Source: Deltaproteobacteria bacterium
Lineage (GTDB): Bacteria > Myxococcota_A > UBA9160 > SZUA-336
NCBI GenBank assembly: GCA_016875225.1
Contig: VGRW01000004.1
Location: 7,111-71,110 of the forward strand
Length of the DNA stretch: 64,000 bases
Reading direction: 5' to 3'
The notes beneath the pieces are model-generated. The model saw only the letters and a list, made by a program, of their open reading frames with translations. It did not search any database and was not told the DNA's origin. The position numbers and the translations under genes are program-made. Below, in pieces: positions 35,960 through 55,524 of the stretch (positions are counted from its first letter, which is position 1; each line of letters begins with the position of its first letter).

Positions 35960-36330
35960 TGCCGACCTCGCTAGAGCTCCTCGTGACCGTGATGATGGTT
36001 CTCGGCACGTTCCTCACCGTGGTGGCCTGCGTCGGCCTGCTGCGCTTCCCCGACGTCTACTGCAGGCTCCATGCCGCAGGAAAGGCCGGAACGCTCGGCG
36101 TGTCGCTGCTGATCCTGGCGCCGATGCTCTACTTCGTGTCGAGCGAGGCGTGGGTCTTCGTGCGCGGGGCGTTCGGCATCTACTTCCAGTTCCTGACCAC
36201 GCCCGCCGCGACCCACATCCTCGCGCGCGCGAGCTACGTCTCGGACTACGCGCTCCACGAGCGGACCGCCGTCGACGACCTGCGCGCGTTCCTGCCCTCC
36301 CGGCCGCACGAGACCTACGGGCGCGAGTAG
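35959..36330 (+). CDS. mrpG: Mrp/Mnh subunit G
   Basis: ATG at 35959, in frame with the 35716..36330 ORF. GLLRFPDVYCRLHAAGKAGTLGV is the MnhG signature. Confidence 0.85.
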   Translation: MPTSLELLVTVMMVLGTFLTVVACVGLLRFPDVYCRLHAAGKAGTLGVSLLILAPMLYFVSSEAWVFVRGAFGIYFQFLTTPAATHILARASYVSDYALHERTAVDDLRAFLPSRPHETYGRE

Positions 36331-36338
36331 GAGGGCCC

Positions 36339-37511
36339 GTGCTCTTCGATCCAGCGCGCCACGGGCCGCTGCGCGAGAGCCGTTGGGACGAGGCGCGCGC
36401 GCGCGATACGATCGGGCGGATCGTCGCGGAGGCCGAGCGGGTCTTCGATCCCGAGACGCTGTGGCCAGAGCATCCGCTCGATCGCCTCCCTTCGAGGTCT
36501 CTATACTACGGCGCGGCGGGCGTGATCTGGGCGATCGACTTCCTCTTCGAGCAGTCGGCGGCGCGGTCGACGCGCGACTGGAATCCGATCGTCGAGGCGC
36601 TCCACTCGCGTCCGCACGTCGGAGCCGAAGCGGATCCGCTCGCGCGGGACGGGTACCTGCACGGCGCCGCGGGGCTCGCGCTCGTCGGCCATCGCGTGAC
36701 TCGATCCGCCGTCTGGGTCGAGCGAGCCTTGGCCTCCGCAAGATCGAACCTGGAGCACCCGTCGAACGAGCTCGCGATCGGCACGCCGGGAACGCTCCTC
36801 GCGGCGGTCGCGCTGCACGAGGCCTCGGGCGACCCGCGGCTGCACGAGGTCGCCGCGCGGAGCCGGGCGAGCGTGCTCGCGCGACTCCGCTTCGAGCCCG
36901 AGCACGGCTGCAAGCTCTGGACGCAGGCCTTCGGCGCGACGACGCAGATGCTCGGGCTGGCGCACGGCTTCGCGGGAAACGCCTGCGCTCTGATTCGCGC
37001 CGGCGTTTCGGCGCAGCTCGCGGGCGACGTGGAGCGTACGCTCGACGCGACGGCGCGGATCGAGGACGGGCTCGCGAACTGGCCGCAGAGCGTCGGACCT
37101 CCGCGCCCCGGTCGCGACGCGATGCGGGTCCAGATCTGCCACGGCGCGCCGGGCGTGATCGTCGCGCTGGCTCGCCTGGAGCCGCGCCCGGGCTCGCGGC
37201 TGGACGAGCTGCTGCGCATGGGCGGCGAGCTCGTCTTTCGCGCGGGTCCGCTGGCGAAGGGTTCGAACCTCTGCCACGGCACCGCCGGCAACGGCTACGC
37301 GTTCCTGTGTCTGTACCGGCGCACCGGCGAGCGCGTCTGGCTCGAGCGCGCGCGGAGCTTCGCGATGCACGCGATCGGGCAGTGGGAGGACGAGCGCGAG
37401 GTCCATGGCCGCGGCCGCTACTCGCTCTGGACCGGCGACGTGGGTCTCGCCTGCTTCCTCTGGGACTGCGTTCGAGAGCGCGACGAGTTCCCGACCGTTC
37501 ACGCCTTCTGA
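36339..37511 (+). CDS. LanC-like (lanthionine synthetase C-like) protein, stand-alone
   Basis: GTG at 36339, 8 nt after the mrpG stop and preceded by AGGAGGG. LanC repeats and Zn-site motifs: GAAGVIWA, GLAHGFAGN, QICHGAPGV, NLCHGTAGNGYAF, SLWTGDVGLACFL. Confidence 0.8.
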   Translation: MLFDPARHGPLRESRWDEARARDTIGRIVAEAERVFDPETLWPEHPLDRLPSRSLYYGAAGVIWAIDFLFEQSAARSTRDWNPIVEALHSRPHVGAEADPLARDGYLHGAAGLALVGHRVTRSAVWVERALASARSNLEHPSNELAIGTPGTLLAAVALHEASGDPRLHEVAARSRASVLARLRFEPEHGCKLWTQAFGATTQMLGLAHGFAGNACALIRAGVSAQLAGDVERTLDATARIEDGLANWPQSVGPPRPGRDAMRVQICHGAPGVIVALARLEPRPGSRLDELLRMGGELVFRAGPLAKGSNLCHGTAGNGYAFLCLYRRTGERVWLERARSFAMHAIGQWEDEREVHGRGRYSLWTGDVGLACFLWDCVRERDEFPTVHAF

Positions 37512-38237: not shown

Positions 38238-39794
38238 CTACGCGAGCCCCAGCCGCGCGAGCTGATCCTCGGGCGCCTCGATCTCGACGAGCGCCGCGCG
38301 AAGCCGCTCCTCGGCGCGCTTCTCCGCGGCGGTTCCGGCCAGGTCGCGCTCCTCGCCGGGATCCTCGCGCAGGTCCCAGAGGTGGCTGCCGCTGAACTGG
38401 CCGATCCCCCAGAAGGGCAGGCGGTCGCCAAGGACGAAGGGCTGGCGGATCACCGGGACCTTCGATCCCGGCATGCGATCGAGACGCGCGCGCTCGTCGG
38501 GAAGCGGCATGCGCAGCTGCGGCAGGCGCGCGACCGGCATGGTCGACCAGCGATTGGAGAAGACCGAGAGCGGCGAGTTCGCGCCGACCGGACCGCGCGC
38601 GTACTTCTCGCGGCCGTCGAGCACGTGGACCTCCCGGCCCCAGTAGCCGGAGAGCGCCCATTCGCGCACGCGATCGGTCTCGCCGCGCAGAAGCGGCGCG
38701 AGCGAGCGTCCGTGCGTGCGCTGTCGGGCCGTGACGCCGAACAGGTCGAGGAGCGTCGCGTGCACGTCCACGTTCGTCGTCAGAGCCGCACGGCTCCCCG
38801 GCACGACCCCCGGCCACGCGATCATGAGCGGGATGTGTCCGAGCGGCTCGTAGACGGGAACGGCGGGCTTACCGAACGCGTCCTTCTCGCCGAGATAGTG
38901 GCCGTGGTCGGAGCAGACGATCACCGCGGTCGAGTCCCAGAGCCCGCTTCGGTCGAGCGCGTCGAGGATCCGGCCGAACCAGTGATCGATCATCGTGAGT
39001 TTCGCGCCGTAGCAGGCCCGCACCTGTCGCGCCTCGCGCTCGGTCAGCACCCCCTCGCCGATCGCGGCGCGGGAATAGGGCGGCCAGATCAGGTGCGGCC
39101 CGCGCCAGTCGGGGTCGTAGAGCGACGCGTACGGCTCGGGCGTGTCGAACGGCTCGTGCGGATCGAACTCGTCGACGAAGAGCAGGAAGCGCTCGTGGTG
39201 CGGAGCGTCGTGCTCGAGCCAGCGCGAAGCGGTCGAAAGCGTGCGCGGGCCGGGAAAGTCGGCCTCGCCGCGAAAGTAACCGCGCGAGTCGTCGTAGTGC
39301 GTGTGTCCGCGGCCGAACGACGGCGCCCCGATCCAGCTCGGGTCCGGACGCGTGCGCCACGGATCGCTCTCGTGACCGCGTTGGTAGTCCCAGGCGGTGA
39401 AATCGCAGTGGTAGTTCTCGCCGCCGACCTCGAAGAGGTGCGGGTGGTCCGAGACCAGCATGGTCGTGACGCCTGCGCGCCGCAGCTCCACCGTGATCGG
39501 ATCCTCCCAGATCTCGATCGAGCCCCACGGCTTCCACAGGAAGTCGAGCGCGCCGCAGAGCAGGTCGTGCCGCGCGGGCATGCAGGGAAGCGAGCCGGCG
39601 TAGTGCGTGTCGAAGCGGACCGCTCGCTTCGCGAAGCGATCCAGGTTCGGCGTCTGGAACTCGCGCGAGCCGTAGGCGCCGAGCAGGTGCCGGTTCAAGC
39701 TGTCGAGTAGCACGACGACCGCGTTCGAGGGCGAGTTCGCAGCAGCCCGGCCGTTGGCGGAGGCGCGCTCGTTCATGACAGGATTCTCGCACAT
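38238..39794 (-). CDS. Cys-type sulfatase (alkaline-phosphatase superfamily), no signal peptide
   Basis: LLDSLNRH, formylglycine motif SLPCMPARH (CxPxR), and SDHGHYLGE. The ATG at 39794 is preceded by GGAG. An ATG at 39776 is an alternative start. Confidence 0.85.
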   Translation of the reverse strand: MCENPVMNERASANGRAAANSPSNAVVVLLDSLNRHLLGAYGSREFQTPNLDRFAKRAVRFDTHYAGSLPCMPARHDLLCGALDFLWKPWGSIEIWEDPITVELRRAGVTTMLVSDHPHLFEVGGENYHCDFTAWDYQRGHESDPWRTRPDPSWIGAPSFGRGHTHYDDSRGYFRGEADFPGPRTLSTASRWLEHDAPHHERFLLFVDEFDPHEPFDTPEPYASLYDPDWRGPHLIWPPYSRAAIGEGVLTEREARQVRACYGAKLTMIDHWFGRILDALDRSGLWDSTAVIVCSDHGHYLGEKDAFGKPAVPVYEPLGHIPLMIAWPGVVPGSRAALTTNVDVHATLLDLFGVTARQRTHGRSLAPLLRGETDRVREWALSGYWGREVHVLDGREKYARGPVGANSPLSVFSNRWSTMPVARLPQLRMPLPDERARLDRMPGSKVPVIRQPFVLGDRLPFWGIGQFSGSHLWDLREDPGEERDLAGTAAEKRAEERLRAALVEIEAPEDQLARLGLA

Positions 39795-40758
39795 GCAAAT
39801 CTCCGTCGCGTTTCCGCCGGGCCGGGATCTGGTCGACTACGCGCTGCTCGCGGAGTCGCTCGGCTACACGCGGGTCTGGGTCTGCGATTCGCCCGCGCTC
39901 TACGAGGACGTCTGGATCGCGCTCGGCGCGATCGCGGAGAACACGGACGAGATCGGCTTCGGACCCGCGGTGCTGGTGCCGAGCCTGCGGCACGTTCTGG
40001 TGACGGCCTCCGCGATCGCGACGCTCGAGGCGCAGGCGCCGGGCCGGCTCGCGGTGGCGATCGGAACCGGATTCACCGGGCGCCGGGCGCTCGGAAAGAA
40101 GCCGCTCTCGTTCGCCGTGCTCGAACGCTACGTCCGCGAGCTCCGCGGGCTGCTCGCCGGCGAGACGGTGCGGGTCGACGGCGCGAAGGTCGCGCTCCTG
40201 CAGCCGGACGGCTTCGGAGCGCCGCGGCCGATCCCCACGCCGATCCTGATCGCGGCCAACGGGCCGAAGGGCCTCGCGGTCGCGCGCGAGCTCGGCGACG
40301 GGGTGATGTGCGTGGGCCGGCCACAGCCGGGCTTCGCGTGGTGCGCCGCGCTCGCAGTCGGCACCGTGCTCGAGGAGGACGAGACGTTCGCCTCGCCGCG
40401 CGTCTTCGACGCGCTCGCTCCCGCGATCGCCATGATCTACCACGCGGCCTGGGAGGCGTCACCAGAGAGTGTAGATGCGCTTCCCGGCGGGGCCGCCTGG
40501 CGCGCCGAGATCGAGGCGCTGCCCGCGGACGAGCGCCACCTCGCCGTCCACGCCGGGCACGGGGTCGCGGTCTCCGAGCTCGACCTACGGCACGTCTCGA
40601 GCCAGCTCGGCGCGCTCACCTTCTCGGGCACGCAGGCGCAGCTCCGCGAGCGGCTGGCGCGCCTCGCCGACGAGGGGCTGACTGAAATCGTCTACCAGCC
40701 GCTCGGCTCGGACATCCCGAGCGAGCTCGACGCGTTCGCCAGGATGGCGAGGCCGTGA
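39793..40758 (+). CDS. LLM-class (luciferase-like) flavin/F420-dependent oxidoreductase
   Basis: ATG at 39793 (MQISVAFPPGRDLVDYALLAESLGYTRVWVCDSPALYEDVW...). TIM-barrel LLM pattern. The track ORF starts at 39754. Confidence 0.75.
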   Translation: MQISVAFPPGRDLVDYALLAESLGYTRVWVCDSPALYEDVWIALGAIAENTDEIGFGPAVLVPSLRHVLVTASAIATLEAQAPGRLAVAIGTGFTGRRALGKKPLSFAVLERYVRELRGLLAGETVRVDGAKVALLQPDGFGAPRPIPTPILIAANGPKGLAVARELGDGVMCVGRPQPGFAWCAALAVGTVLEEDETFASPRVFDALAPAIAMIYHAAWEASPESVDALPGGAAWRAEIEALPADERHLAVHAGHGVAVSELDLRHVSSQLGALTFSGTQAQLRERLARLADEGLTEIVYQPLGSDIPSELDAFARMARP

Positions 40759-42704
40759 GGCGCGCGATCGCGGTCGCGCTGCTCGGCGCCGCGTTCGCGA
40801 GTCCGCCGGCCGCAGCCTCCGAGCTCGCGCTCGGGAGCTCGGAGCAGAGCGCGCCCTGCGCGCACCGAGAGAGCCTGCGGCGTCCGCTCTTCGGCGACCT
40901 GCACGTCCACACCGCGCTCTCGCTCGACGCCGGCACGCAGGGCACGCGAAATCGACCCGCCGACGCCTATCGCTTCGCGCGCGGCGAGCGCATCGGCGTC
41001 CAGCCGTACGACGCGCAGGGCAGACCCATGCGCGAGATGCAGCTCGAGCGTCCCCTCGACTTCGCGGCCGTGACCGATCACGCCGAGATGCTCGGCGAGG
41101 CCCACATCTGCGGCACCCCGGGGATCGATGGCTACGATTCGTGGATCTGCCGCGTCTATCGCGGCTACCCGCGCCTCGCGTTCTTCGTGATGAACTACCG
41201 CGCCTCGCGCGGCGACGCGGTCGAGCCTCCGACGCGCTTCGACTTCTGCGGCGCGGGCGGGCAGCGCTGCAAGGAGGCCGCGATCGGGCCCTGGCGCGAG
41301 ATCGTGGAAGCCGCCGAGGCGGCGAACGATCGCAGTGCGGAGTGCCGCTTCGCGACCTTGATCGGCTACGAGTGGACGGGCGCGGCCGGGCCCGGAAACA
41401 ACTTGCACCGCAACGTGATCTTCCGGAACTCGGTGGTGCCGGAGCTGCCGTCGAGCTTCATCGACACGCCGGCGCCGGAGCTCTTGTGGCGCAAGCTCCG
41501 CGAGACCTGTCTCGACGCGGGGACCGGCTGCGACGCGCTCGTGATTCCGCACAACTCCAACCTCTCCGCCGGGCGCATGTTCGCGACCGTGCACGCCGAC
41601 GGCTCGCCGATGTCGGCGGAAGAGGCGAGCTTGAATGCAGAGCTCGAGCCGCTGGTCGAGATCATGCAGCACAAGGGCTCGTCGGAGTGCATGCGTGGCG
41701 TCGACACGGCCGACGAGCTCTGCTCCTTCGAGACGCTCGCGATGAGCAACTTCAACGGGCGCTACGTGCCGTACCTGGCCGAGACCCCGCTGCCGCGCCA
41801 GTTCGTGCGCCACATCCTGCGCGAGGGACTGGTGCAGGAGGAGAAGCTCGGCGTGAACCCGTTCAAGTACGGCATCGTCGCGGGGAGCGACACGCACCTG
41901 GGCGCGTCCGGGGCCGTCGACGAGGACGTGGACTTCAAGGGCCACGGCGGCGCGGGCAATCCGGCGCGCGACGAGATCCCCAAGGGGCTGCCGGACGCCT
42001 GGGATCTGAACCCGGGCGGACTTGCGGTGGTCTGGGCCGAGGAGAACTCGCGCGAGGCGATCTTCTCGGCGCTGCGACGCAAGGAAGTGTACGGCACGAG
42101 CGGCCCGCGCCACGTCGTGCGCTTCTTCGCCGGCTACGACTATCCCGAGGATCTGTGCGAGACCGGCGAGTTCGCGGCGCGCGGCTACGCGGGCGGGGTG
42201 CCGATGGGCGCGGACCTTCCGGCCGCGCCCGCCGGCCGAGCGCCGCGCTTCGTCGTCTCGGCGCTTCGCGATCCGGGGACCGAGACGCGGCCGGGCGCAA
42301 AGCTCTCGCGGCTGCAGGTCGTGAAAGGCTGGCTCGACCGGGAGGGTCGGACGCACGAGCGGGTGTTCGACGTCGCGGGCGACCCGAAGAGCGGAGCCGA
42401 CGTCGATCTCGCCAGCTGCGAGCCCCGCGGCCCGGGAGCGGACGCGCTCTGCGCGGTCTGGGCCGATCCGGATTTCGATCCTGCCGAGCGCGCCGTCTGG
42501 TACGCGCGCGTGATCGAGAATCCGACCTGCCGCTGGACCACCCGGGTCTGCAATGCCGGCGGCGTGCGCTGCGACGACCCGTCGCAGCTGGAAGAGGGGT
42601 TCGAGCCGTGCTGCGACGCGCAAGTCCCGAAGACGGTTCAGGAGCGGTCCTGGACCTCGCCGATCTGGTACTCGCCCGCCCGCGCCGGAAAGGGAGCGCC
42701 ATGA
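40755..42704 (+). CDS. DUF3604-family secreted metalloprotein (PHP-like)
   Basis: Signal peptide (MRRAIAVALLGAAFASPPAAASE). GDLHVHTALSLDA, AVTDHAEMLGE, GYEWTG, IPHNSNLSAG and VEIMQHKGSSEC are as I remember for DUF3604. GTGA overlap with the LLM gene. Confidence 0.75.
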   Translation: MRRAIAVALLGAAFASPPAAASELALGSSEQSAPCAHRESLRRPLFGDLHVHTALSLDAGTQGTRNRPADAYRFARGERIGVQPYDAQGRPMREMQLERPLDFAAVTDHAEMLGEAHICGTPGIDGYDSWICRVYRGYPRLAFFVMNYRASRGDAVEPPTRFDFCGAGGQRCKEAAIGPWREIVEAAEAANDRSAECRFATLIGYEWTGAAGPGNNLHRNVIFRNSVVPELPSSFIDTPAPELLWRKLRETCLDAGTGCDALVIPHNSNLSAGRMFATVHADGSPMSAEEASLNAELEPLVEIMQHKGSSECMRGVDTADELCSFETLAMSNFNGRYVPYLAETPLPRQFVRHILREGLVQEEKLGVNPFKYGIVAGSDTHLGASGAVDEDVDFKGHGGAGNPARDEIPKGLPDAWDLNPGGLAVVWAEENSREAIFSALRRKEVYGTSGPRHVVRFFAGYDYPEDLCETGEFAARGYAGGVPMGADLPAAPAGRAPRFVVSALRDPGTETRPGAKLSRLQVVKGWLDREGRTHERVFDVAGDPKSGADVDLASCEPRGPGADALCAVWADPDFDPAERAVWYARVIENPTCRWTTRVCNAGGVRCDDPSQLEEGFEPCCDAQVPKTVQERSWTSPIWYSPARAGKGAP

Positions 42705-45969: not shown

Positions 45970-46836
45970 TCAGCGGATCTTCGCGAGCACCTCGCCGGCG
46001 AAGCGGTCGAGCGCGTCGTCGGAGCTGCCGCCGATCGCGAAGGTCGGCACCACGAGTCGCGAGACGCCGAGATCCGCGTAGCGCTTCACCGCGTCGATCC
46101 CCTCCGCCGCGGGAATCCACATCGCCGAGATCTCGACGCTCGCCGGGTCGCGTCCGATCGCGGCGCACGCCTTGCGCAGCGGCGCGAGCAGCTCCGCGAG
46201 CTGCGCCACGTTCCCGCTCGGCGCGTACCAGCCGTCGCCGAGCTTCGCGATCCGCTCGAAGACCTTCCCCTTCGATCCGCCGACGATGATCGGCACGCCC
46301 GGGCGCTGGACCGGAATCGGGTAGCTCTTGAAGCCGGACCAATTCAGGAACTCGCTGCGGTGCTCGACGACCTCGCCCGACCAGACCTTGCGCATCGCCG
46401 CGACGTAGTCGTCGAAGCGGGCGCCGCGGTGCTCGAACGGAACGCCGAGCGCGTCGAACTCCTCGCGCAGCCAGCCGATCCCCACGCCGAGCATGAAGCG
46501 GCCGTTCGAGACGAAGTCGAGGCTCGCGGCCTGCTTGGCCAGGTACAGCGGGTTGGTCTGCGACAGGATGTTCACGCCGGTCGCGAGGCGGATCTTCGAG
46601 GTGCAGGACGCGATCGCCGCCAGCGCGATCAGCGGGTCGACCAGGTTCGTCTCGGGCGGCGCACCCATCTTCCCGGTCGCGTTGTACGGGTACTTCGACG
46701 AGTAGTCGATCGGGATCATCACGTGCTCGAAGGTCCAGAGCGACTCGATTCCGATCGCCTCGGCCTTGCGCGCGGCAGCGAGCAGCTGCCGGGAATCCGC
46801 GACGGCCATGTTGACGGGGATCAGGCCGATCTTCAT
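45970..46836 (-). CDS. LLM-class flavin/F420-dependent oxidoreductase
   Basis: ATG at 46836 (MKIGLIPVNMAV...), in frame with the 45970..46998 ORF and sharing one nucleotide with the MOSC stop. ESLWTFEHV, GVGIGWLREEFDALGV, RGARFDDYVAAMRKVW. Confidence 0.8.
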   Translation of the reverse strand: MKIGLIPVNMAVADSRQLLAAARKAEAIGIESLWTFEHVMIPIDYSSKYPYNATGKMGAPPETNLVDPLIALAAIASCTSKIRLATGVNILSQTNPLYLAKQAASLDFVSNGRFMLGVGIGWLREEFDALGVPFEHRGARFDDYVAAMRKVWSGEVVEHRSEFLNWSGFKSYPIPVQRPGVPIIVGGSKGKVFERIAKLGDGWYAPSGNVAQLAELLAPLRKACAAIGRDPASVEISAMWIPAAEGIDAVKRYADLGVSRLVVPTFAIGGSSDDALDRFAGEVLAKIR

Positions 46837-47696
46837 CAGAGCAGCTCCACCGCGTCGCCGACCGCGATCCGGCCGGCGCGCTCGATGCTTCCGTAGACGC
46901 CGACGTTCTGGTTCGCCTCGCGCACGACGGTGCGGATCAGACCCGGGTCCTTGGGCAGATCGTCGAAGCCGTGCGAGATCATCACGCAGCGCGGGCAAGC
47001 CGCAGGCACCGAGATCTCCACGTCTCCGATCCGCAGGCGCTTGCCGATCCAGCCGAGCTCCGCGAAATCCTCGACGCCGTCCGGTGTCGTGATCAGGAGA
47101 TTCGGACGGAAGCGGCGCACGTCCACGCGCGACGCGGGCGCCAGCTTCTGCAGCCGCCCGAGCGTGGCGCTGGTGAGCAGGAGCAGCGGAAACGCGTCGA
47201 AGTAGGTGCCGGGCGGCGACTCGAACTCGAAGAGCACCGGAGGGAAGACCGAGAAATCCGGCAGCGGCTCGTCCGGCGCGCGGCCGAAGACCGCGCGCAT
47301 CTCCTGGTCGAAATCGGCGTGGGTCGGGGCGCCGCGCCGGTAGTGATCGAGCTTCTCGGCCGGAAGCAGCGGCCAGAGCGTGACCTCGTTGCGAAGCGCC
47401 TGGCTCAGTCGCTTCGAGGCTTCGGCGTCCGACGCGCGCAGACGCGCGCCGTCGGGAAGCGTGATCTCGGGCGCCGGCACGCGTCCCGGCTCGGGCTCCT
47501 CGAGGTAGCGCGCTCCGCAGCGCATCAGCTCGGCGAGTTTCTTCGCGCCGCGAATGCCGCCGCGCACCTCGTCCCGCCCCGCCCAGCCGCGATCTCCGGG
47601 GATGCCGTTCGTGCCGAGCTTCGCGGCGTCGATCCGCTCGCCCTTCATGGATTTCACGGGATACCGCCAGAGCTCACCGATCCGACCGACGATCAT
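46836..47696 (-). CDS. MOSC domain-containing protein
   Basis: MIVGRIGELWRYPVKSMKGE (MOSC_N beta-barrel), RRFRPNLLI, and the conserved Cys in PAACPRCVMI. Confidence 0.85.
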   Translation of the reverse strand: MIVGRIGELWRYPVKSMKGERIDAAKLGTNGIPGDRGWAGRDEVRGGIRGAKKLAELMRCGARYLEEPEPGRVPAPEITLPDGARLRASDAEASKRLSQALRNEVTLWPLLPAEKLDHYRRGAPTHADFDQEMRAVFGRAPDEPLPDFSVFPPVLFEFESPPGTYFDAFPLLLLTSATLGRLQKLAPASRVDVRRFRPNLLITTPDGVEDFAELGWIGKRLRIGDVEISVPAACPRCVMISHGFDDLPKDPGLIRTVVREANQNVGVYGSIERAGRIAVGDAVELL

Positions 47697-48708: not shown

Positions 48709-49563
48709 ATGCGGACCCGAGACGTACGACGGCTGATCTCCTGCCTGATCCTGCTCCTGGCCGCCACGGCACAGGCCCAGGACGACGCGCTGCCGAACGG
48801 CGCCGGACCGAGCGGCCGCGAGATCTACCAGCGCGTGATCGACAACAAGCTCGAGACCGCGTACTTCGAGCACCGCATGAGCTCGACCGATCCCGGTGGG
48901 AGCGTGCAGAACCTGGCGTTCTGGTCGCGCTTCAAGGATCTGCGCGCGCCGGGATCCGCGCCGAAGGGCGCCGTCATCTCGAAGACGGTGATGAAGTTCA
49001 CCGACCCGTACGACAAGCGAGACACGGCCTACCTCTTCATCGAGCGGAAGGGCACCGAGGACGAGGGCTTCCACTACTCGCGAAAGCGCGAGCGAGTCAC
49101 CCGGATCGCGCCGGCGAAGGAATCGATCTTCGGCAGTGACTTCAGTCTGGACGACCTCGCGGTGGTGAGCCACATCGACGACGCGACCTACCAGCGGCTT
49201 CCCGACGAGGAGCTCCAGGGAGTGTCCGTCTGGGTCGTCGACGTGAGCCACAAGCCGGAGACCGATCCGGCCTACGCGCGCAGCCTGCTGTACGTGGACA
49301 AGGTGTACAACGTGCCGCTGCGCACGCGGCACTGGGACGACGCGGGGGTCGAGGTGAAGCAGCTCGAGATCCCGCGCGGCAGGATCGAGTCGTACTCCGG
49401 GGTCTGGATCCCGCGCGAGAGCACGATGTACGACCTGTCCGAGAAGACGCAGTCGGTGCTCACCATCGAGCGCGTGGTCGACAACCCGGTGATCTCGGAC
49501 GCGATCTTCTCGCCCCAGAGCCTGAAGACCGTCGACTCGCTACGCGCGGGCGCGCGCGAGTAG
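48709..49563 (+). CDS. LolA-like outer-membrane lipoprotein-sorting family protein (secreted)
   Basis: ATG at 48709, 5 nt after the crotonase stop. Signal peptide (LISCLILLLAATAQAQ). RVTRIAPAKESIFGSDFSLDDL resembles the LolA_like/DUF1329 core. Confidence 0.7.
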   Translation: MRTRDVRRLISCLILLLAATAQAQDDALPNGAGPSGREIYQRVIDNKLETAYFEHRMSSTDPGGSVQNLAFWSRFKDLRAPGSAPKGAVISKTVMKFTDPYDKRDTAYLFIERKGTEDEGFHYSRKRERVTRIAPAKESIFGSDFSLDDLAVVSHIDDATYQRLPDEELQGVSVWVVDVSHKPETDPAYARSLLYVDKVYNVPLRTRHWDDAGVEVKQLEIPRGRIESYSGVWIPRESTMYDLSEKTQSVLTIERVVDNPVISDAIFSPQSLKTVDSLRAGARE

Positions 49564-51918
49564 CGCCGGGAGCATGACCAGATCGGCGGCCAGGCAGATC
49601 AGCAGGGTCAGCGCCGACAGGTAGCCGAACTCCACGATCGTCGCGAAGCCCGAGACCGTGATCGTGAGGAAGCCGGCGATCAGCATCAGCGCGGAGATCG
49701 CCATCGGCCGGCCGACGCGGCGCATGCTGTGCAGCACCGCGGCCTCCGGCGAGTTGCCTCGCTCGCGCAGGCGCCGGTAGGTCACGAGCATGTGCACCGT
49801 GTCGTCGACCGCCACGCCGAGCACCACGCAGCCGATCATGCTGGTCGGTAGCGAGAGCGGCGCGATGCCGAAGCCGAGCATTCCGAAGAACAGGATCACC
49901 GGCGTCAGGTTCGGGGCCATCACCAGCAGGCTGATGCGCAGCGAGCGGAACACGTAATAGACCAGCAGCAGCACGGTCGCGCTCGCGAGCGCGATGCTCG
50001 AGACCTGGTTGCCCGCGAGCGCGTCGGCGCTGCGGTTCAGCACCACGGCGTTGCCCGTCACTTCGACGCGCAGCGCGGGCGAAAGATCGAGCCGCTCCAC
50101 CACCGCTTCGATGCGCGCGACCAGCGTGCGCACCGCGCGCGAGCCGAGCTCGCCGGTGCGCACCAGCACGTTCGCGGCGCTGTGATTGGAGTTCGCGAAG
50201 CGGCGCAGCTCCGCCTTCGGAACCATGAAGATCAGGTCGCTCACCTCCTCGCGCGAGTTGGGAATGCGCTCCTGCGCCGGGTCGCCGTGCTCGAGGGCGC
50301 GGTTCAGCAGCCGCAACGGATCGGCCATCGAGACCGCGGCCGAAACGCCTGGCAGGAGCTCGAGCTCGCGCTGCAGCGCTTCCAGCTTGCGCAGGTTCGC
50401 CGGCTCGCGGAAGGCTCCCTCGTCGCGGCCGAAGAGCGCCACGTACAGAGGCACCGGCCCGATCAGCCGCTCGTTCACCGCGGCGAAGTCGCGCCGCACC
50501 GGCGAGTCGGCCTTGAAGTAGGTGAGATAGTCGGTGTCGACGACGATCCGCGGCAGCGCGATCAGCGCGCACACCGTGACCAGGGCCCAGCCGAGCAGGA
50601 CCGGCGTCGCGTGCGCGGTGCAGACCCGCGCGAGCGCGACGAGCGCGTCGTCGAGCCTGCGGCCGAAGGCCTCCCCGATCCTCGTGGTCGCCTGCCGGCC
50701 CGTGCGGTGCGGCAGCAGCGCGAGCGCCGCCGGAATTCCGGCCAGCGAGATGGCCGTCAGCATCGAGCAGCCGAAGAACGCGAACAGCCCCAGCTCCTCG
50801 ATGCCCGGAATCCCGCTCGGGACGAGCGCCGCGAAGCCGACCGTGGTCGTCACCCCCGAGAGGACCTCCGGCAGGAACACCTCGTTCAGCGTCGCGAGCG
50901 CGGCGTCGCGCGCGTTGTCGGCGTGCTCTCGCTCCAGCTCCCAGCGCGCGACGATGTGCACGCCGTAGAGCCCGCCGAGCGAGATCAGGATCGGCGCGAG
51001 CACGATCGTGAGCAGGTTGATCGGCGTGCCCGTCGCCGCGAGCAGCCCGAACGTCCACAGCACCGACATCAGACAGCCGAGCAGCGGCAGCAGCACGCAG
51101 CGCGCCGAGCCGGTGGTGACGAAGACCACGAGCGTCGCGACCACGACCGCGAGGGGGATCAGGCGCGCGAGGTCCTCGGCCATGATCACGGCGGTGCGAG
51201 ACTTCACGTGCGGACGGCCCGCGAAGCGGAACTCCCGGCCGGGCGCCGCCTCGGCATTGGCGATGGTGCGGATCGCCTCGTCGAGGCCGAGATCTACGAA
51301 GGCGCGATCGCCGATCTCGTGGAAGGACAGGTTGATCGCGGCGGCCGATCCGTCGCGCGAGACGATCAGCTCGGGGTAGATCGGGTCCGCGAGCGCACGT
51401 GCGCGCAGGTCGGCGAGCGCGGCGGGGTCGCTCGGCACCTCGTCGATGAAGCGCGAGACGTCCAGCCAGTCCTTCTCCGCGTCCCAACGGTACGTCGGCA
51501 CGTCGACCAGGCTCTCCGCGCGCCGCACCCCGGGAAGCTTCAGCACGGCGTGGCTGATCCGGCGCAGCGCCGCGAGGTTCTCTTGCGTGAACACGTCGTC
51601 GGCCAGCATCGCGATCACGTAGACGTCGTCGTTTCCGAAGCTGCGCGTCGCCTCGCGGTAGACCTCGCGAGCGGGATCCCTTCGCAGCATCAGCGGCTCC
51701 TCGGACGCGTCGAGGCGGACGCGCACGGCGAGATTGCGCACGTCGAAGAGGAGGAGCGCCGCGACCAGCGAGATCGCGCCGAGCCCGCCGAGCACGAGCC
51801 CGGCGCGATCGACGACCCACTCCGGCCGCGCGCGTACGAAGGCGAGCGCCGCGTAGGCGAGCGCGACGCCGACAGCGACCAGGACGAGCGGCGGGATCGG
51901 CGTTCCGGTGGAGTCCAT
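49540..51918 (-). CDS. RND-superfamily exporter of the MMPL/HpnN-like type
   Basis: ATG at 51918 (MDSTGTPIPPLVLVAVGVALAY...), in frame with the 49540..52743 ORF. 792 aa with two repeats, each a large soluble loop followed by a cluster of hydrophobic segments (LIPLAVVVATLVVF..., LVMAPNLTPVILFFGMLGF...GVAVDDTVHML). Confidence 0.8.
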   Translation of the reverse strand: MDSTGTPIPPLVLVAVGVALAYAALAFVRARPEWVVDRAGLVLGGLGAISLVAALLLFDVRNLAVRVRLDASEEPLMLRRDPAREVYREATRSFGNDDVYVIAMLADDVFTQENLAALRRISHAVLKLPGVRRAESLVDVPTYRWDAEKDWLDVSRFIDEVPSDPAALADLRARALADPIYPELIVSRDGSAAAINLSFHEIGDRAFVDLGLDEAIRTIANAEAAPGREFRFAGRPHVKSRTAVIMAEDLARLIPLAVVVATLVVFVTTGSARCVLLPLLGCLMSVLWTFGLLAATGTPINLLTIVLAPILISLGGLYGVHIVARWELEREHADNARDAALATLNEVFLPEVLSGVTTTVGFAALVPSGIPGIEELGLFAFFGCSMLTAISLAGIPAALALLPHRTGRQATTRIGEAFGRRLDDALVALARVCTAHATPVLLGWALVTVCALIALPRIVVDTDYLTYFKADSPVRRDFAAVNERLIGPVPLYVALFGRDEGAFREPANLRKLEALQRELELLPGVSAAVSMADPLRLLNRALEHGDPAQERIPNSREEVSDLIFMVPKAELRRFANSNHSAANVLVRTGELGSRAVRTLVARIEAVVERLDLSPALRVEVTGNAVVLNRSADALAGNQVSSIALASATVLLLVYYVFRSLRISLLVMAPNLTPVILFFGMLGFGIAPLSLPTSMIGCVVLGVAVDDTVHMLVTYRRLRERGNSPEAAVLHSMRRVGRPMAISALMLIAGFLTITVSGFATIVEFGYLSALTLLICLAADLVMLPALLARARA

Positions 51919-52761: not shown

Positions 52762-52783
52762 GAGCTTCGCGGCAAAGCACGGT

Positions 52784-52813
52784 TTGCCGGCGCGCGCTCG
52801 AGTGGTTTACATT
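52784..52813 (+). promoter_or_regulatory. putative sigma70-type promoter of the SCP2-like/ferritin-like trio
   Basis: TTGCCG (52784..52789), 18-nt spacer, TACATT (52808..52813), inside a conspicuous AT-rich patch (GTGGTTTACATTGATTTCAAGATTCC). GGAGG lies 6 nt before the ATG at 52840. A GGCAAA-GCACGG-TTTGCC hairpin sits just upstream. Confidence 0.4.
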
Positions 52814-52839
52814 GATTTCAAGATTCCGCGGAGGCATTC

Positions 52840-53262
52840 ATGACGATCCGATTCCCCTCGCTCGAGTTCTTCCAGGCGCTGCAGCAGCGCACCAAGGAGG
52901 ACAAGGCGGTCTTCGAGAAGCTCGGCACCTGCGACACGAATTTCGGCGTGAAGATCGGCAGCCAGCTGTACACGATCGACTTCGAGGTCTACGAGTGCGT
53001 GGACGTCCGGGAAGGCGGCGACCCGACGCGTCTCGACTTCGTGATCGGCGGTCCCACGGAGGTCTGGGGCGAGATGGTGAAGGCGATCCTCCAGCACGGC
53101 GGCGCCGACGCGAAGCACACCCTGAACACGCTCTCGCACGTCGGTGACGTGCTGCGGATCGAGACGAGCGACGCCGAGGGACACGACAAGTTCTACCGTT
53201 TCATGGCGTCGATCCAGGAGTTCTTCGACCAGGCCCGCCACCTCGACGTCAAGGTCGCCTAG
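52840..53262 (+). CDS. small SCP2-like (sterol-carrier-fold) protein, hypothetical
   Basis: 140 aa. The pattern F.V.I....Y.IDF......V.EG......DFVI.GP..VW.EMV.......L..L...G.LRIE..D resembles SCP2/alkyl-sulfatase C-terminal domains. The assignment is by pattern only. Confidence 0.45.
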   Translation: MTIRFPSLEFFQALQQRTKEDKAVFEKLGTCDTNFGVKIGSQLYTIDFEVYECVDVREGGDPTRLDFVIGGPTEVWGEMVKAILQHGGADAKHTLNTLSHVGDVLRIETSDAEGHDKFYRFMASIQEFFDQARHLDVKVA

Positions 53263-53270
53263 GAGCCCCG

Positions 53271-54353
53271 ATGTCTTACGTCGCCCCCAAGGACTACACG
53301 CAGGATCCAGAGATCGTCGCGAAGATCATGCGCACGATCTCGGGACAGCTCGAGCTCACCTGGATGAAGAACATCGGCGAGCGCGCGGCGTTCCGGCCCA
53401 GCCAGACGGCGCGCGGGCTCACGCTCGACGACATCAACCAGGGCTCGTACTCGCCCGATCACCTGCCCGAGATCGTGCGGCACAACTTCTCGATGGCGCC
53501 GCGCGGGGCGATCCTTCCCGCCGGGCTGCCGTCGCTGGGCTACCGCCTGAACCGCAAGAGCGACGTCTGGGCGGACATCGCGCCGCGGCTCTACGAGGAA
53601 GGGAAGTCGCGCCGCTGGGCGCCGGCGCACGACGTGCCCTGGGACGCGCTCGCCAAGCCCGGCCACTCCGAGGACGTCGCGATCGCGCTGCGGCAGCTCT
53701 CGACGAATCTCACCTCGGTCGGGCTGGTCGCCTGCGACACCGCCGCGTCGTTCGAGTACCGCATGAACCAGGAATTCCACGAGATCAAGTTCCTGATGTG
53801 CGTGCAGATGTACGACGCGGCGCGGATCGCCGAGGCGTTCCGGAAGCGCGCGCTCGCCGGCGACGGCCAGCTCGGCGTCGACTGTGCCGAGCTCGGCGAC
53901 TTCCTGAAGACGATCTTCGTGGCCGACTCCTACGCCGAGGCGTCGGTGTCGATGAACGTGCTGCTGTTCTCGTGGGTGCAGGCGCTCGGACGGCACATCG
54001 AGTACACGGCGACGAACCGGGCGGACACGTTCCTCGGCACGCGGCTCGCGCAGGACGCGAGCCGCTTCATCGCCTACGGCGTGGCGCACATCCGCAACCT
54101 GTTGCGCGTGCGCCCGATCGAGGTGGAGCGGCTCGACAATCACCTCGATCTGGCCGAGAACGCGCTGGTCGGCGCGCTCGGGGCGCCGGCGATGATCGAG
54201 CCGCTGGTGCTGATCTCGGGCGGATTCGAGCCCGTCGTCGGGCTCTACGAGCGAACCGTCGAGGAGTACTTCGGCCGCTGCCTGGCGGCCGGTCTGGGCG
54301 ATCGCAGCGCGCGCAGCCCGCTGCCCGAATTCCTGCGGATGCTCCGCAGCTGA
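53271..54353 (+). CDS. ferritin-like four-helix-bundle protein, metal-ligand-less paralog
   Basis: 360 aa. Clearly paralogous to the next gene: MSYxxPxDx, LNRKSDVW, DVPWxxL, RMNQEFHEIK / RMNNQFHEVK, AEAFRKRAL / AEVFRKRAL. It has DAARI and QDASRF where the paralog has DEARH and QDEARH. Confidence 0.75.
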   Translation: MSYVAPKDYTQDPEIVAKIMRTISGQLELTWMKNIGERAAFRPSQTARGLTLDDINQGSYSPDHLPEIVRHNFSMAPRGAILPAGLPSLGYRLNRKSDVWADIAPRLYEEGKSRRWAPAHDVPWDALAKPGHSEDVAIALRQLSTNLTSVGLVACDTAASFEYRMNQEFHEIKFLMCVQMYDAARIAEAFRKRALAGDGQLGVDCAELGDFLKTIFVADSYAEASVSMNVLLFSWVQALGRHIEYTATNRADTFLGTRLAQDASRFIAYGVAHIRNLLRVRPIEVERLDNHLDLAENALVGALGAPAMIEPLVLISGGFEPVVGLYERTVEEYFGRCLAAGLGDRSARSPLPEFLRMLRS

Positions 54354-54372
54354 TCCGAAGAAGGGGAACCCG

Positions 54373-55524
54373 ATGAGCTACTACGGACCCACCGACTGGC
54401 GCAGCAACTCCGATCTGGCGCTGCGCATGCGCGACATCCGCAAGGGCAACCTCGACCTCGGCTGGATGAAGGCCGGCACCGAGAAGCTGCGCTTCTCGCA
54501 GGAGAACCCCAAGCGCGGCTTCACCTACCTGGACGTGAACAAGGGCAGCTACGGCTACGACGATCTGCCCGAGGTTCCGCGCGGTCCGCGGGGCGCGGCG
54601 CCGCGCGGCGCGACCTACGACGTGAAGCACCAGGCCGACCTCGAGCCGGAGCTGAACCGCAAGTCGGACGTCTGGGCCTACAAGGTCGCGTCGTTCACGG
54701 AGGAGGCGGTCTCGCGCCAGTGGGACGCCACCACCGACGTTCCCTGGACCGACCTCGACAAGTACGAGCGAAGCGAGGAGCTCGAGGTCGCCTACGCGCA
54801 GCTCTGCACGTTCTTCACCGAGGTCGAGATGATCGCGACCGACCTGCCGGCGAAGTGGCTCTGGCGCATGAACAACCAGTTCCACGAGGTGAAGCACTTC
54901 ATCGCCACGCAGGCGATCGACGAGGCGCGACACGCCGAGGTGTTCCGCAAGCGCGCGCTGGTCGGCGGAGTCGGCCTGATGGAGGCGCTGCCGCAGGCCG
55001 AGCACTCGCTGAAGGCGATCCTCGACGGCGACACCTACGGCGACGCGTCGGCGTTCATGCACCTGCTGGCCGAGGGCAACATCCTGACTATGTTCCGCTT
55101 CAGCGAGTTCATCTCGCCCACGCCCGTCGACAAGCGCATCTTCCAGCTCGTGATGCAGGACGAGGCGCGCCACGTCTCGTACGGGATGCAGCACCTGAAG
55201 TGGACCATCGACCACACACCCGAGCGCAAGGAGCAGCTGCACAGCGCGCTCGACGAGGGCGAGTCGATCACGATCAACCAGTTCGACGCCGCGCTCACCG
55301 AGTGCATGATCGTGCTCGCGGGAAAGGGCACCAAGCCGGAGCAGATCGCCGAGGGCGTGAAGATCGTTGGCCAGCTGCAGGTGAAGCAGATGCAGGAGTA
55401 CTTCCACCGCCTGCGCCGCGCCGGCTTCGAGGACCGCATCGCGCGCTCGAAGTTCACGCCGATGCTGAGCCAGCTCGGGCTGACGCCGGAGTTCACCGCG
55501 AAGGCGGCCGCCGAGGTCAGCTGA
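54373..55524 (+). CDS. ferritin-like diiron-carboxylate protein (candidate oxygenase subunit)
   Basis: 383 aa. Complete E...ExxH x2 ligand pattern: TEVE (E150/E152), DEARH (E184, H187), LAEG (E234), QDEARH (E264, H267). Confidence 0.8.
   Translation: MSYYGPTDWRSNSDLALRMRDIRKGNLDLGWMKAGTEKLRFSQENPKRGFTYLDVNKGSYGYDDLPEVPRGPRGAAPRGATYDVKHQADLEPELNRKSDVWAYKVASFTEEAVSRQWDATTDVPWTDLDKYERSEELEVAYAQLCTFFTEVEMIATDLPAKWLWRMNNQFHEVKHFIATQAIDEARHAEVFRKRALVGGVGLMEALPQAEHSLKAILDGDTYGDASAFMHLLAEGNILTMFRFSEFISPTPVDKRIFQLVMQDEARHVSYGMQHLKWTIDHTPERKEQLHSALDEGESITINQFDAALTECMIVLAGKGTKPEQIAEGVKIVGQLQVKQMQEYFHRLRRAGFEDRIARSKFTPMLSQLGLTPEFTAKAAAEVS

Follow-up and report, generated by a model that had tools for sequence, protein, structure and literature searches.

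An SCP2-fold protein and two ferritin-like paralogs, one with and one without a complete dimetal-carboxylate site, encoded by a conserved three-gene module: a candidate oxygenase for hydrophobic substrates

The window analysed here, a 64,000-nucleotide stretch of contig VGRW01000004.1, contains three co-directional genes preceded by a short intergenic region. The gene coordinates are those of the ORF list, and the intergenic region was read from the sequence.

52762-52839, forward strand: upstream intergenic region, 78 nt
52840-53262, forward strand: gene for the putative small SCP2-fold subunit, 140 aa
53271-54353, forward strand: gene for the ligand-less ferritin-like paralog (proximal protein), 360 aa
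54373-55524, forward strand: gene for the ligand-complete ferritin-like dimetal-carboxylate protein (distal protein), 383 aa

The ORF coordinates bear out the description of three same-strand genes separated by gaps of 8 and 19 nt that had been given in the initial annotation of this DNA. The GGAG-type ribosome-binding site that it assigned to each gene is present before genes 1 and 2, as GGAGG located 6 nt 5' of the ATG and as (T)AGGAG, respectively, but not before gene 3, whose start is preceded by the purine-rich sequence GAAGGGGA with no clean GGAG. The patch gtggtttacattgatttcaagatt 5' of gene 1, described earlier as AT-rich and promoter-like, is AT-rich relative to the approximately 70% GC genome, but a scan of the patch did not find a sigma-70 consensus. 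The promoter presumably sits within the 78-nt region 5' of gene 1.

The AF2 model of the 140-aa protein (mean pLDDT 93.9, pTM 0.89) was compared with the PDB using Foldseek, and the best 19 matches were all SCP2-type proteins. The top match was 2cx7 (E=1e-5, TM 0.67/0.72, rmsd 2.9 Å, 136 columns), further matches were 1wfr, 3bn8, human SCP2, and UbiJ-SCP2, and an effector-protein fold was absent from the matches. The Pfam SCP2 model PF02036 did not match the window protein at E<=1 or five homologs from other clades at E<=5, and a PDB profile search with the alignment of the small protein gave no match. The proposal that the small partner is SCP2-like is supported by the model and its structural matches, whereas the sequence HMMs give it no support. 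The protein is predicted to have an SCP2 fold, and its ligand binding is putative. None of its 242 homologs has been named. The residues conserved in both clades are mostly aromatic or hydrophobic, in addition to D32, D66, N96, H100, D116, and R120, and its cysteine residues are not universally conserved.

The two large proteins share 35% identity over their full length (BLASTP, E=1e-66), and every common motif on which their paralogy had been proposed is present. The distal protein has the E...ExxH...E...ExxH pattern of a ferritin-like four-helix bundle, formed by E150/E152, E184/H187, E234, and E264/H267, and in its model (pLDDT about 90) these ligands lie on four long helices (residues 135-155, 171-197, 222-246, and 251-281). 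Each of the ligands is retained in at least 80 of 85 distal orthologs, in which H230 is also nearly invariant. The proximal protein is ferritin-like by its homology to the distal protein, but it lacks the ligand pattern, with S, G, A, I, F, A, and F at the seven aligned positions. This loss is family-wide: the position of E184 is occupied by alanine in 55 and that of H187 by leucine or isoleucine in 54 of the 74 proximal orthologs. Alignment and ortholog conservation therefore agree with the earlier reading that the site is complete in the distal protein and that all ligands are gone from the proximal one.

When the same loci are compared across type-1 species, proximal proteins are 53-82% and distal proteins 75-91% identical, so the proximal protein evolves faster, and its branches in the phylogeny are also longer. 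The proximal paralogs form their own clade, the topology of which mirrors that of the catalytic clade, and these mirrored phylogenies may reflect co-evolution. Ligand loss is partial in the P paralogs of loci L054, L058, and L076, which retain the site-1 half only. A single complete gene occurs in Acidimicrobiia, half-site paralogs in some Binatia, and fully ligand-less paralogs in Myxococcota, and the duplication in Dehalococcoidia is apparently independent. The family thus displays several stages of subunit degeneration in progress.

None of the three proteins falls under a Pfam or NCBIfam model, and homolog annotations yield no name, in agreement with the initial view that the trio belongs to no named family. 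Sub-threshold matches of the distal protein in Pfam and NCBIfam were limited to DUF455, AurF, RNR small chain, and R2lox. Its Foldseek matches were VlmB (6d9f and 8wvr), R2lox, ADO, RNR-R2, and acyl-ACP desaturase, and its profile matched a VlmB homolog (E=5e-10) and GkR2lox (E about 3e-8) in the PDB; both sets belong exclusively to the R2-like ferritin superfamily. Among the four-helix-bundle proteins that had been expected as relatives, acyl-ACP desaturase was recovered by Foldseek and AurF weakly by Pfam; PaaA/PaaC was not among the best 50 Foldseek matches listed or the Pfam matches at E<=1. [quoted passage not shown]

The VlmB-type azoxy synthase and 'Protein 60' structures (PDB 8wvr and 6d9f) gave the distal protein its best profile match (E=5e-10) and its best Foldseek match (E=1e-5). 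They share with it the motifs TQ-x-x-DEARH-x-x-FR and DE-x-RH, an identity of 18-20%, and a TM of about 0.5-0.6. According to the available part of a review, VlmB-type enzymes accept aliphatic substrates, VlmB works with VlmO inside azoxy natural-product gene clusters, and its chemistry is N-oxidation and not C-H hydroxylation; the same part makes no mention of an SCP2 or ligand-less partner (PMC11705231). No azoxy cluster or VlmO-like partner was seen in the recurrent neighbour clusters or called genes of 84 loci. With homology this remote and no azoxy-like context among these loci, the distal protein was not assigned to the VlmB-type azoxy synthases. That the closest solved relative performs N-oxidation counts against the reading that we prefer below.

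The R2lox references, GkR2loxI of Geobacillus kaustophilus (PDB 4hr0) and Rv0233 of M. tuberculosis (PDB 3ee4), have the same ferritin-like R2 fold and E...ExxH...E...ExxH site as the distal protein. Their DEAKH and DEGRH align with its DEARH and QDEARH, giving the shared motifs DEA(K/R)H-x-E-x-F and DE(G/A)RH. F191 in DEARHAEVF of the distal protein aligns with the phenylalanine of DEAKHVEMF in R2lox, at the radical-tyrosine position of R2. A phenylalanine at this position is the sole sequence hint toward a Mn/Fe cofactor in the distal protein. Identity to the R2lox structures is about 15-18%, and R2lox lacks the N-terminal region of about 100 residues carried by the window proteins, which is conserved and, in the distal protein, poorly modelled. 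The distal protein shows no evident counterpart of the Tyr-Val ether cross-link that R2lox carries next to its metal site, as judged from an HMM alignment in which V72 of GkR2lox aligns with I154 and which does not cover the Y162 region; five residues before E234, the spacing of Y162 and E167 in GkR2loxI, lies M229, followed by the conserved H230, with no tyrosine. Against the NCBIfam R2lox equivalogs NF006200 and NF006202, the distal protein scored 27.9 bits (cutoff 194) and 12.4 bits (cutoff 315), and the proximal protein scored 15.6 bits against a cutoff of 315. Both paralogs are thus far below the cutoffs and were rejected as members of the R2lox equivalogs. Long-chain (hydroxy) fatty acids are bound by R2lox. 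Its solved representatives form homodimers; the window module has a ligand-less paralog as an obligate genomic partner. In haloarchaea, hexadecane reportedly induces the R2lox genes, which are reported to lie in clusters with genes for ferredoxin and sterol carrier proteins (PMC9314684), and GkR2loxI is reported to consume alkanes, the claim of alkane hydroxylation being based on crude-lysate assays (PMC10867098). As late as 2022, R2lox was still reported to have no established physiological role (PMC9314684). As a related and tightly defined unit, the three-gene module offers a handle on R2lox, since it brings a clear hypothesis on substrate delivery.

The intact trio was found in 72 of 80 species-level genomes from Myxococcota and Binatia, in two gene orders, and in 72 of 76 loci once those truncated at a contig end are set aside, so the co-occurrence check proposed at the outset came out in favour of a linked unit. 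Genomes often carry two copies (L001 and L040, L024 and L043, L018 and L047). An SCP2-like partner also adjoins the relatives in Acidimicrobiia (HMM E=2e-36) and Dehalococcoidia (HMM E=6e-43). The relative in Acidimicrobiia is preceded by an acyl-CoA dehydrogenase gene, and its SCP2-like gene is followed directly downstream by a gene for a 4Fe-4S ferredoxin. Neither in the window nor at most loci of Myxococcota and Binatia is there a reductase or ferredoxin gene close to the trio; the gap pointed out earlier is partly narrowed by the ferredoxin gene of Acidimicrobiia.

An ECH gene lies directly upstream of the trio in the window, L001, L005, and L072, and an SDR gene lies downstream. The flanking crotonases and SDR had been taken as a clue to the substrate, but this clue is weak, as ECH is present in 7 and SDR in 11 of the 80 loci and both are conserved only among the closest relatives. 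Other neighbours in the window encode an MMPL/sterol-sensing-domain transporter, a LolA-like protein, and two class-I methyltransferases, and the transporter and methyltransferase genes are not conserved beyond the closest relative. Regulators of ligand-responsive types adjoin the trio, TetR in 12 loci and AraC-type in 4. Lipid-related neighbours are scattered, among them WS/DGAT directly downstream in L001, acyl-CoA synthetase, a thiolase-like gene, ECH, and SDR. Each is rare (at most 14 of 80 loci), and the association could be due to chance because such genes abound in the host genomes. Genes of isoprenoid or quinone pathways were not among the recurrent neighbours of the trio.

PaaABC joins a catalytic diiron subunit to a structural homolog deficient in ligands and to a small accessory protein, and in outline this logic matches the window trio. 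As a general idea, a catalytic subunit accompanied by a degenerate paralog and a small accessory partner makes sense, but the more specific relationship to PaaA/PaaC suggested initially was not borne out: the Pfam model PaaA_PaaC (PF05138) matched neither paralog at E<=1, and Paa chains were absent from the best 50 Foldseek PDB matches listed for the distal protein and from the PDB profile matches at E<=10. The small protein had also been compared to PaaB; it is predicted to have an SCP2 fold instead and would therefore be a counterpart neither of PaaB nor of a BMM effector protein. PaaABC(D)E furthermore has the reductase PaaE, whereas the window has no reductase in or beside the unit, and there are no conserved CoA-pathway neighbours around the trio. 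The trio was not assigned to the PaaABC(D)E complexes, given the SCP2 fold of its small protein and the lack of a PaaB-type subunit and a PaaE-type reductase; the likeness is best regarded as an analogy, in which the architectural logic stands. The only BMM match in the PDB profile search was a phenol hydroxylase alpha subunit (E=0.28-0.3, not significant), and the BMMs (sMMO, phenol/toluene hydroxylases) were rejected for want of significant homology, an effector fold, and a reductase. Yeast Rnr2-Rnr4 likewise consists of an R2-fold catalytic protein and a paralog in which metal ligands have been lost and which has a structural or assembly role. The window family resembles this pair in its R2-fold catalytic protein and ligand-losing paralog and includes half-loss intermediates too, but it differs in having F191 at the radical-tyrosine position and an SCP2 partner, and the context of an RNR large subunit is absent around the trio.

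We consider it probable that the trio forms one soluble multi-subunit Fe/Fe or Mn/Fe oxygenase/oxidase for a hydrophobic substrate. A dimetal oxygenase is suggested because the conserved site is complete and lies on the four core helices; a single module, because of the 8- and 19-nt gaps, the linkage in 72 of 80 genomes despite two gene orders and flanks that are not conserved, and the mirrored phylogenies of the two paralogs. The phenylalanine F191, the adjoining ligand-responsive regulators, and the SCP2-like partners in Dehalococcoidia and Acidimicrobiia, with the ferredoxin gene of the latter, also speak for this reading. The hydrophobic substrate is proposed because of the predicted SCP2 fold and the scattered lipid neighbours, and its aliphatic nature because the fold and profile relatives VlmB, R2lox, ADO, and acyl-ACP desaturase handle aliphatic ligands. 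The 140-aa protein would bind the water-insoluble substrate and hand it to the active-site channel of the 383-aa catalytic subunit, whose carboxylate/histidine site would bind two metal ions and, once reduced, activate O2. By analogy with Rnr4/Rnr2 and PaaC/PaaA, the 360-aa paralog, of the same fold but metal-free, may associate with the catalytic subunit in a structural role. Electrons would come from a ferredoxin, which in Acidimicrobiia is encoded next to the module and here is presumably a housekeeping one encoded elsewhere. As to the chemistry, a long aliphatic chain (that of an alkane, fatty acyl group, or similar lipid) is most likely hydroxylated or oxidised in some other two-electron reaction. 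The haloarchaeal R2lox-ferredoxin-sterol-carrier clusters (PMC9314684) and the alkane use reported for GkR2loxI (PMC10867098) provide a precedent for this reading. Counting against it are the lack of a reductase or ferredoxin gene close to the trio here and at most Myxococcota and Binatia loci, the rarity of each lipid-related neighbour, the origin of the SCP2 assignment in a predicted structure, the poorly modelled N-terminal region of the catalytic subunit, and the crude-lysate basis of the R2lox alkane claim.

The same proteins could instead act by hydroxylation or desaturation on a membrane lipid or isoprenoid of the cell itself (a quinone, carotenoid, hopanoid, or sterol intermediate). 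UbiJ/UbiT and COQ9 are lipid-presenting partners of soluble ubiquinone hydroxylases, and the SCP2-fold subunit would take a comparable role, presenting polyprenyl intermediates. UbiJ/UbiT have the SCP2 fold and UbiJ-SCP2 structures match the model of the small protein; many genomes carry the module as a stable element, frequently twice; and a sterol-sensing-domain transporter, a LolA-like protein, and two methyltransferases are encoded nearby. The precedents COQ7-COQ9 and UbiJ each fit in part, COQ7 being a diiron carboxylate hydroxylase, while COQ9 does not have the SCP2 fold and the partners of UbiJ are flavin monooxygenases. Since the transporter and methyltransferase neighbours are lost past the closest relative, genes of isoprenoid or quinone pathways do not recur beside the trio, and TetR and AraC-type regulators suit an inducible catabolic module better, we regard such a biosynthetic role as unlikely. 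A somewhat smaller chance is given to a non-turnover, lipid-binding R2lox-like complex for sensing, storage, or protection (for example, lipid peroxide or metal handling) or to a radical- or oxidant-generating subunit like RNR R2. The function of R2lox not having been established by 2022 (PMC9314684), the lack of a dedicated reductase at most loci, and the existence of non-enzymatic ferritin-like proteins are compatible with it. F191 argues against an R2-type radical generator. The strong conservation of ligands and second-sphere residues (75-91% identity across type-1 species) and the ferredoxin linked in Acidimicrobiia also speak against this explanation, and the adjoining regulators suggest a metabolic module.

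Two further enzymatic explanations are both very improbable. A PaaABC-like epoxidase or oxygenase acting on a CoA thioester, with the crotonases and SDR downstream in the pathway, would account for the comparable three-part architecture, the ECH and SDR genes flanking the trio, and the acyl-CoA dehydrogenase gene upstream of the Acidimicrobiia relative. It is opposed by the low frequency of ECH and SDR, the missing PaaE-type reductase, the lack of Pfam, PDB profile, and best-50 Foldseek matches to Paa proteins noted above, and the SCP2 fold, which points to a free hydrophobic ligand and differs from PaaB. The slimmest chance goes to a VlmB/AurF-like N-oxygenase or azoxy synthase tailoring a nitrogen-containing natural product, even though VlmB and its homolog head both the Foldseek and the profile matches, AurF is matched weakly in Pfam, and VlmB-type enzymes take aliphatic substrates according to the available part of the review (PMC11705231): the resemblance is distant (18-20% identity, TM about 0.5-0.6), no VlmO-like partner or biosynthetic cluster was seen in the 84 loci, the module contexts are variable and primary-metabolism-like, and neither an SCP2 partner nor a ligand-less paralog is described for VlmB in that part of the review.

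Returning to an oxygenase/oxidase for a hydrophobic substrate, we tentatively raise the possibility that the modules represent an unrecognised, widespread class of soluble hydroxylases with three subunits and a Mn/Fe or Fe/Fe site, acting on lipids or long-chain hydrocarbons, in which the SCP2 carrier is an obligate subunit for delivering the substrate and the degenerate paralog is structural. If so, the class would span uncultured Myxococcota, Binatia, Chloroflexota, and Acidimicrobiia from soil, groundwater, and marine habitats, and it would constitute a new way of oxidising alkanes or lipids aerobically that is absent from current marker-gene surveys of AlkB, CYP153, LadA, and AlmA. What the R2lox branch of the ferritin superfamily does would be illuminated as well, and an SCP2-assisted aliphatic hydroxylase would add an oxygenase class to abundant uncultured lineages.

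The three same-strand genes constitute an unnamed, widespread three-gene module of uncultured bacteria, combining two ferritin-like paralogs with a small protein of SCP2 type. In the window, the ORF calls bear out the tight spacing described in the initial annotation, with intergenic gaps of 8 and 19 nt:

52840-53262, + strand, small gene, ORF encoding 140 aa
53271-54353, + strand, gene for the proximal paralog (P), ORF encoding 360 aa
54373-55524, + strand, gene for the distal paralog (D), ORF encoding 383 aa

Shine-Dalgarno sequences of the GGAG type, which had been claimed for each gene, precede the small and P genes, but the D gene has the purine-rich sequence GAAGGGGA instead. The 78-nt spacer 5' of the small gene is indeed AT-rich against the genome of about 70% GC; a sequence scan, however, found no sigma-70 consensus in it, and no terminator around the unit either. 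Since the last 8 nt of the D gene (55517-55524) are shared with the 3' end of a convergent SDR gene, the operon ends there. No second copy of the module was found within the 64-kb window.

D and P match over their full length with 35% identity (E=1e-66), and all motifs previously quoted in favour of their paralogy are present. D carries the ligand set E150, E152, E184, H187, E234, E264, and H267, and the residues of P aligned to these are, in order, S, G, A, I, F, A, and F, so that the description of D as ligand-complete and P as ligand-less is exact at all aligned positions. Each ligand is kept in at least 80 of 85 D-type orthologs. Among 74 P-type orthologs, E184 is replaced by A in 55, H187 by L or I in 54, and E264 by A or V in 61. 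Within the same genomes P is more divergent than D (53-82% versus 75-91% identity), which fits a relaxed, non-catalytic role. In a neighbour-joining tree, all D sequences fall into one clade and all P sequences, on longer branches, into another. Since these separate clades have internal topologies that mirror each other, they indicate one old duplication followed by co-inheritance.

Three P-type paralogs (L054:2054-3145, L058:9069-10178, and L076:11166-12335, from MAGs titled Binatia, Margulisiibacteriota, and delta proteobacterium) place in a Binatia-like clade and retain the first half-site (EE…, DEARH); the second is lost, with E234 changed to A, E264 to T, and H267 to E or A. They look like a stage of degeneration midway from ligand-complete to wholly ligand-less proteins.

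Pfam and NCBIfam scans of the three proteins and ten distant relatives gave sub-threshold matches only, which rules out a curated family assignment; for D, the weak matches were to DUF455, AurF, RNR-small-chain, and R2lox (R2-like ligand-binding oxidases). Among the homologs listed, all named ones are called 'ferritin-like domain-containing protein' or hypothetical. An exhaustive search yielded 784 clusters at 50% identity, and the cluster members that were looked up came from Acidimicrobiia, other Actinomycetota, and Chloroflexota and had no functional names. The earlier impression that these proteins fit no named family was therefore correct. No description of the family turned up in searches for papers that bring diiron or ferritin-like terms together with SCP2 or 'sterol carrier protein'.

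The AF2 model of D (mean pLDDT 77.7, core about 90, N-terminal ~100 residues poorly modelled) places the ligands on four long helices. A Foldseek search of this model against the PDB ranked the azoxy synthase VlmB and 'protein 60' (6d9f, 8wvr) highest, then many R2lox entries, and then, in order, aldehyde-deformylating oxygenases, RNR R2, and acyl-ACP desaturases. Of the matches that had been anticipated, acyl-ACP desaturases thus appeared, but no chain of phenylacetyl-CoA epoxidase (Paa), nor of the bacterial multicomponent monooxygenases (BMMs), was among the best 50 listed. F191 of D lies four residues past H187, at the site of the radical tyrosine in class Ia R2, and R2lox likewise has Phe there. 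When 44 diverse relatives were combined into a profile, its PDB matches included a VlmB homolog (5e-10) and the R2lox of Geobacillus kaustophilus (GkR2lox, about 3e-8). The profile alignment pairs DEARH and QDEARH of D with DEAKH (E102/H105) and DEGRH (E202/H205) of R2lox; E202/H205 were the residues targeted by mutation in work on GK2771 (PMC10867098).

The nearest named enzymes do not accommodate the trio. The initial annotation had proposed a Paa-style oxygenase, and the working parallel to PaaAC, and to Rnr2/Rnr4, in which a catalytic subunit is joined by a degenerate paralog, still applies; homology to PaaA/PaaC or to BMMs, however, is rejected on the basis of the Pfam, Foldseek, and profile searches. 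The trio likewise falls outside R2lox, whose NCBIfam cutoffs were missed widely, and outside the VlmB-type azoxy clusters. BioE, a ferritin-like fatty-acyl cleaving oxygenase, is an analogue only: it is an ADO-like homodimer, and the BioE paper does not mention DUF455. D and P are members of the ferritin-like R2-type superfamily and of no narrower group.

The N-terminal ~100 residues of P and D (window 53271-53570 and 54373-54672) are poorly modelled in the monomer (pLDDT 37-68). Both paralog families share invariant residues there (G25, L29, W31, G49, T51, D54, N56, Y60, R70, P77-R78-G79, N95, and W101), and this region may fold only within the complex.

For the small protein, the SCP2-like fold suggested earlier is upheld by its predicted structure. 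Its AF2 model has very high confidence (mean pLDDT 93.9), and the best 19 PDB matches are SCP2-type proteins throughout, including Thermus SCP2 (2cx7, TM 0.67/0.72), AF1534, human SCP2/MFE-2, and UbiJ-SCP2. The relationship was undetected by sequence methods (Pfam scans and a PDB profile search). Conservation in both clades falls mainly on aromatic or hydrophobic residues, together with a few polar ones (D32, D66, N96, H100, D116, and R120). Close homologs all keep C31, C53, and H100, which raised the idea of a metal or Fe-S site; the replacement of both cysteines in the Binatia clade argues against it.

Gene neighbourhoods were compared across 80 species-level genome loci encoding relatives. 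The complete trio is present in 72 of them, which confirms its co-occurrence, and four of the eight remaining loci are cut by a contig end. The window's order, small-P-D, occurs in Myxococcota at 75-91% identity to D; small-D-P occurs in Binatia and in another Myxococcota clade, at 52-58%. In several MAGs both orders are represented, by one module each (loci L001+L040, L024+L043, and L018+L047).

At L047:10096-13400, 3' of a small-D-P trio, there are up to three distant ferritin-like ORFs (25-28% identical), including an overlapping minus-strand pair. Each has two DExRH motifs, so the locus holds a local cluster of ligand-complete paralogs. Eleven contigs with a module of the Myxococcota/Binatia type (L017, L023, L025, L026, L027, L029, L044, L057, L058, L062, and L071) have MAG titles naming Spirochaetales/Spirochaetaceae, Pseudomonadales, Margulisiibacteriota, and Klebsiella pneumoniae or Enterobacteriaceae, names that probably stem from wrongly assigned bins instead of the true hosts.

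When 931 ORFs from the 80 loci were clustered, no gene beyond the trio recurred in more than 14 loci, so a function cannot be read from conserved neighbours. The flanking crotonases and SDR had been taken to point to an acyl-CoA or lipid substrate, an argument that fails because this context recurs in the nearest relatives only (ECH near the trio in 7/80 loci, SDR in 11/80). Even so, the recurrent neighbours have a theme. A TetR regulator lies directly upstream of 12 small-D-P loci, and a divergent AraC-type regulator is found at four small-P-D loci. WS/DGAT is encoded in five loci, no more than about 3.5 kb from the trio, and other recurrent neighbours encode a GFO/IDH/MocA oxidoreductase, an acyl-CoA synthetase, and a thiolase-like protein. 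The closest relative, L001 (D 91% identical), has a WS/DGAT wax-ester synthase gene (9156-10631) directly downstream of the D gene, ahead of the convergent SDR gene; the window lacks it, and there the SDR gene overlaps the D gene.

Just 5' of the trio, two enoyl-CoA hydratase genes flank a gene pair that is conserved in L001 only (window 48709-51915): a LolA-like/DUF1329-type lipoprotein-sorting gene (+) and, convergent to it, an MMPL/RND transporter gene (-) with a sterol-sensing-domain match. Within about 16 kb upstream of the trio there are also genes for a LanC-like protein, two luciferase-like monooxygenases, and a DUF3604 protein (36150-37511, 39754-42704, and 45970-46998).

More distant relatives show other arrangements. 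In two Acidimicrobiia loci (L081:6001-7981 and L082:2572-4552), the ferritin-like gene is single and ligand-complete, with no adjoining ligand-less paralog. Next come an SCP2-like gene and the gene for a 4Fe-4S dicluster ferredoxin of 128 aa (L081:7595-7981 in the first locus), whose C-terminal part has a weak zinc-ribbon-like Pfam match; genes for an acyl-CoA dehydrogenase and an FAD oxidoreductase lie upstream. As this ferredoxin gene comes directly after the SCP2-like gene, a ferredoxin can belong to the unit. Outside Acidimicrobiia, a dedicated ferredoxin or Rieske gene near the trio is not supported, as motif scans found such motifs there only rarely. In Dehalococcoidia (L084:241-3361), a complete paralog is followed by a ligand-less one of 479 aa, with an N-terminal extension of ~100 aa, and by an SCP2-like gene. 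These two paralogs pair together in the neighbour-joining tree, outside the Myxococcota/Binatia D and P clades, which suggests that duplication and loss of ligands happened separately here, a long-branch artefact being possible. Because the relatives in both groups carry an SCP2-like gene, the ferritin-like/SCP2 pair is the old core. Several other distant relatives have N-terminal extensions of about 100 residues, and in one (P0393, 431 aa) a TusA sulfurtransferase-like domain is fused N-terminal to the ferritin-like domain.

From the initial Paa-style proposal, the subunit architecture and the SCP2 fold survive, but not the relationship to Paa or the acyl-CoA context. We propose that the trio could form a soluble heteromeric dimetal oxygenase in which D would bind Fe/Fe or Mn/Fe and activate O2, P would serve as structural partner, and the SCP2-fold subunit would solubilise and deliver a hydrophobic substrate, much as UbiJ or COQ9 act as lipid presenters serving a hydroxylase, with electrons coming from a ferredoxin. 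We infer the complex, its metals, and its electron donor, as well as the substrate. In PMC9314684, haloarchaeal R2lox genes are said to cluster with ferredoxin and sterol-carrier-protein genes and to be hexadecane-induced, a direct parallel, and modest evidence from crude lysates has GkR2loxI consuming C10-C22 alkanes in an E202/H205-dependent manner (PMC10867098). Given this parallel, hydroxylation of a long aliphatic chain is the favoured candidate reaction. The trio opens a way to test ideas about the R2lox-like branch, and about what is possibly an overlooked route of lipid or hydrocarbon oxidation.
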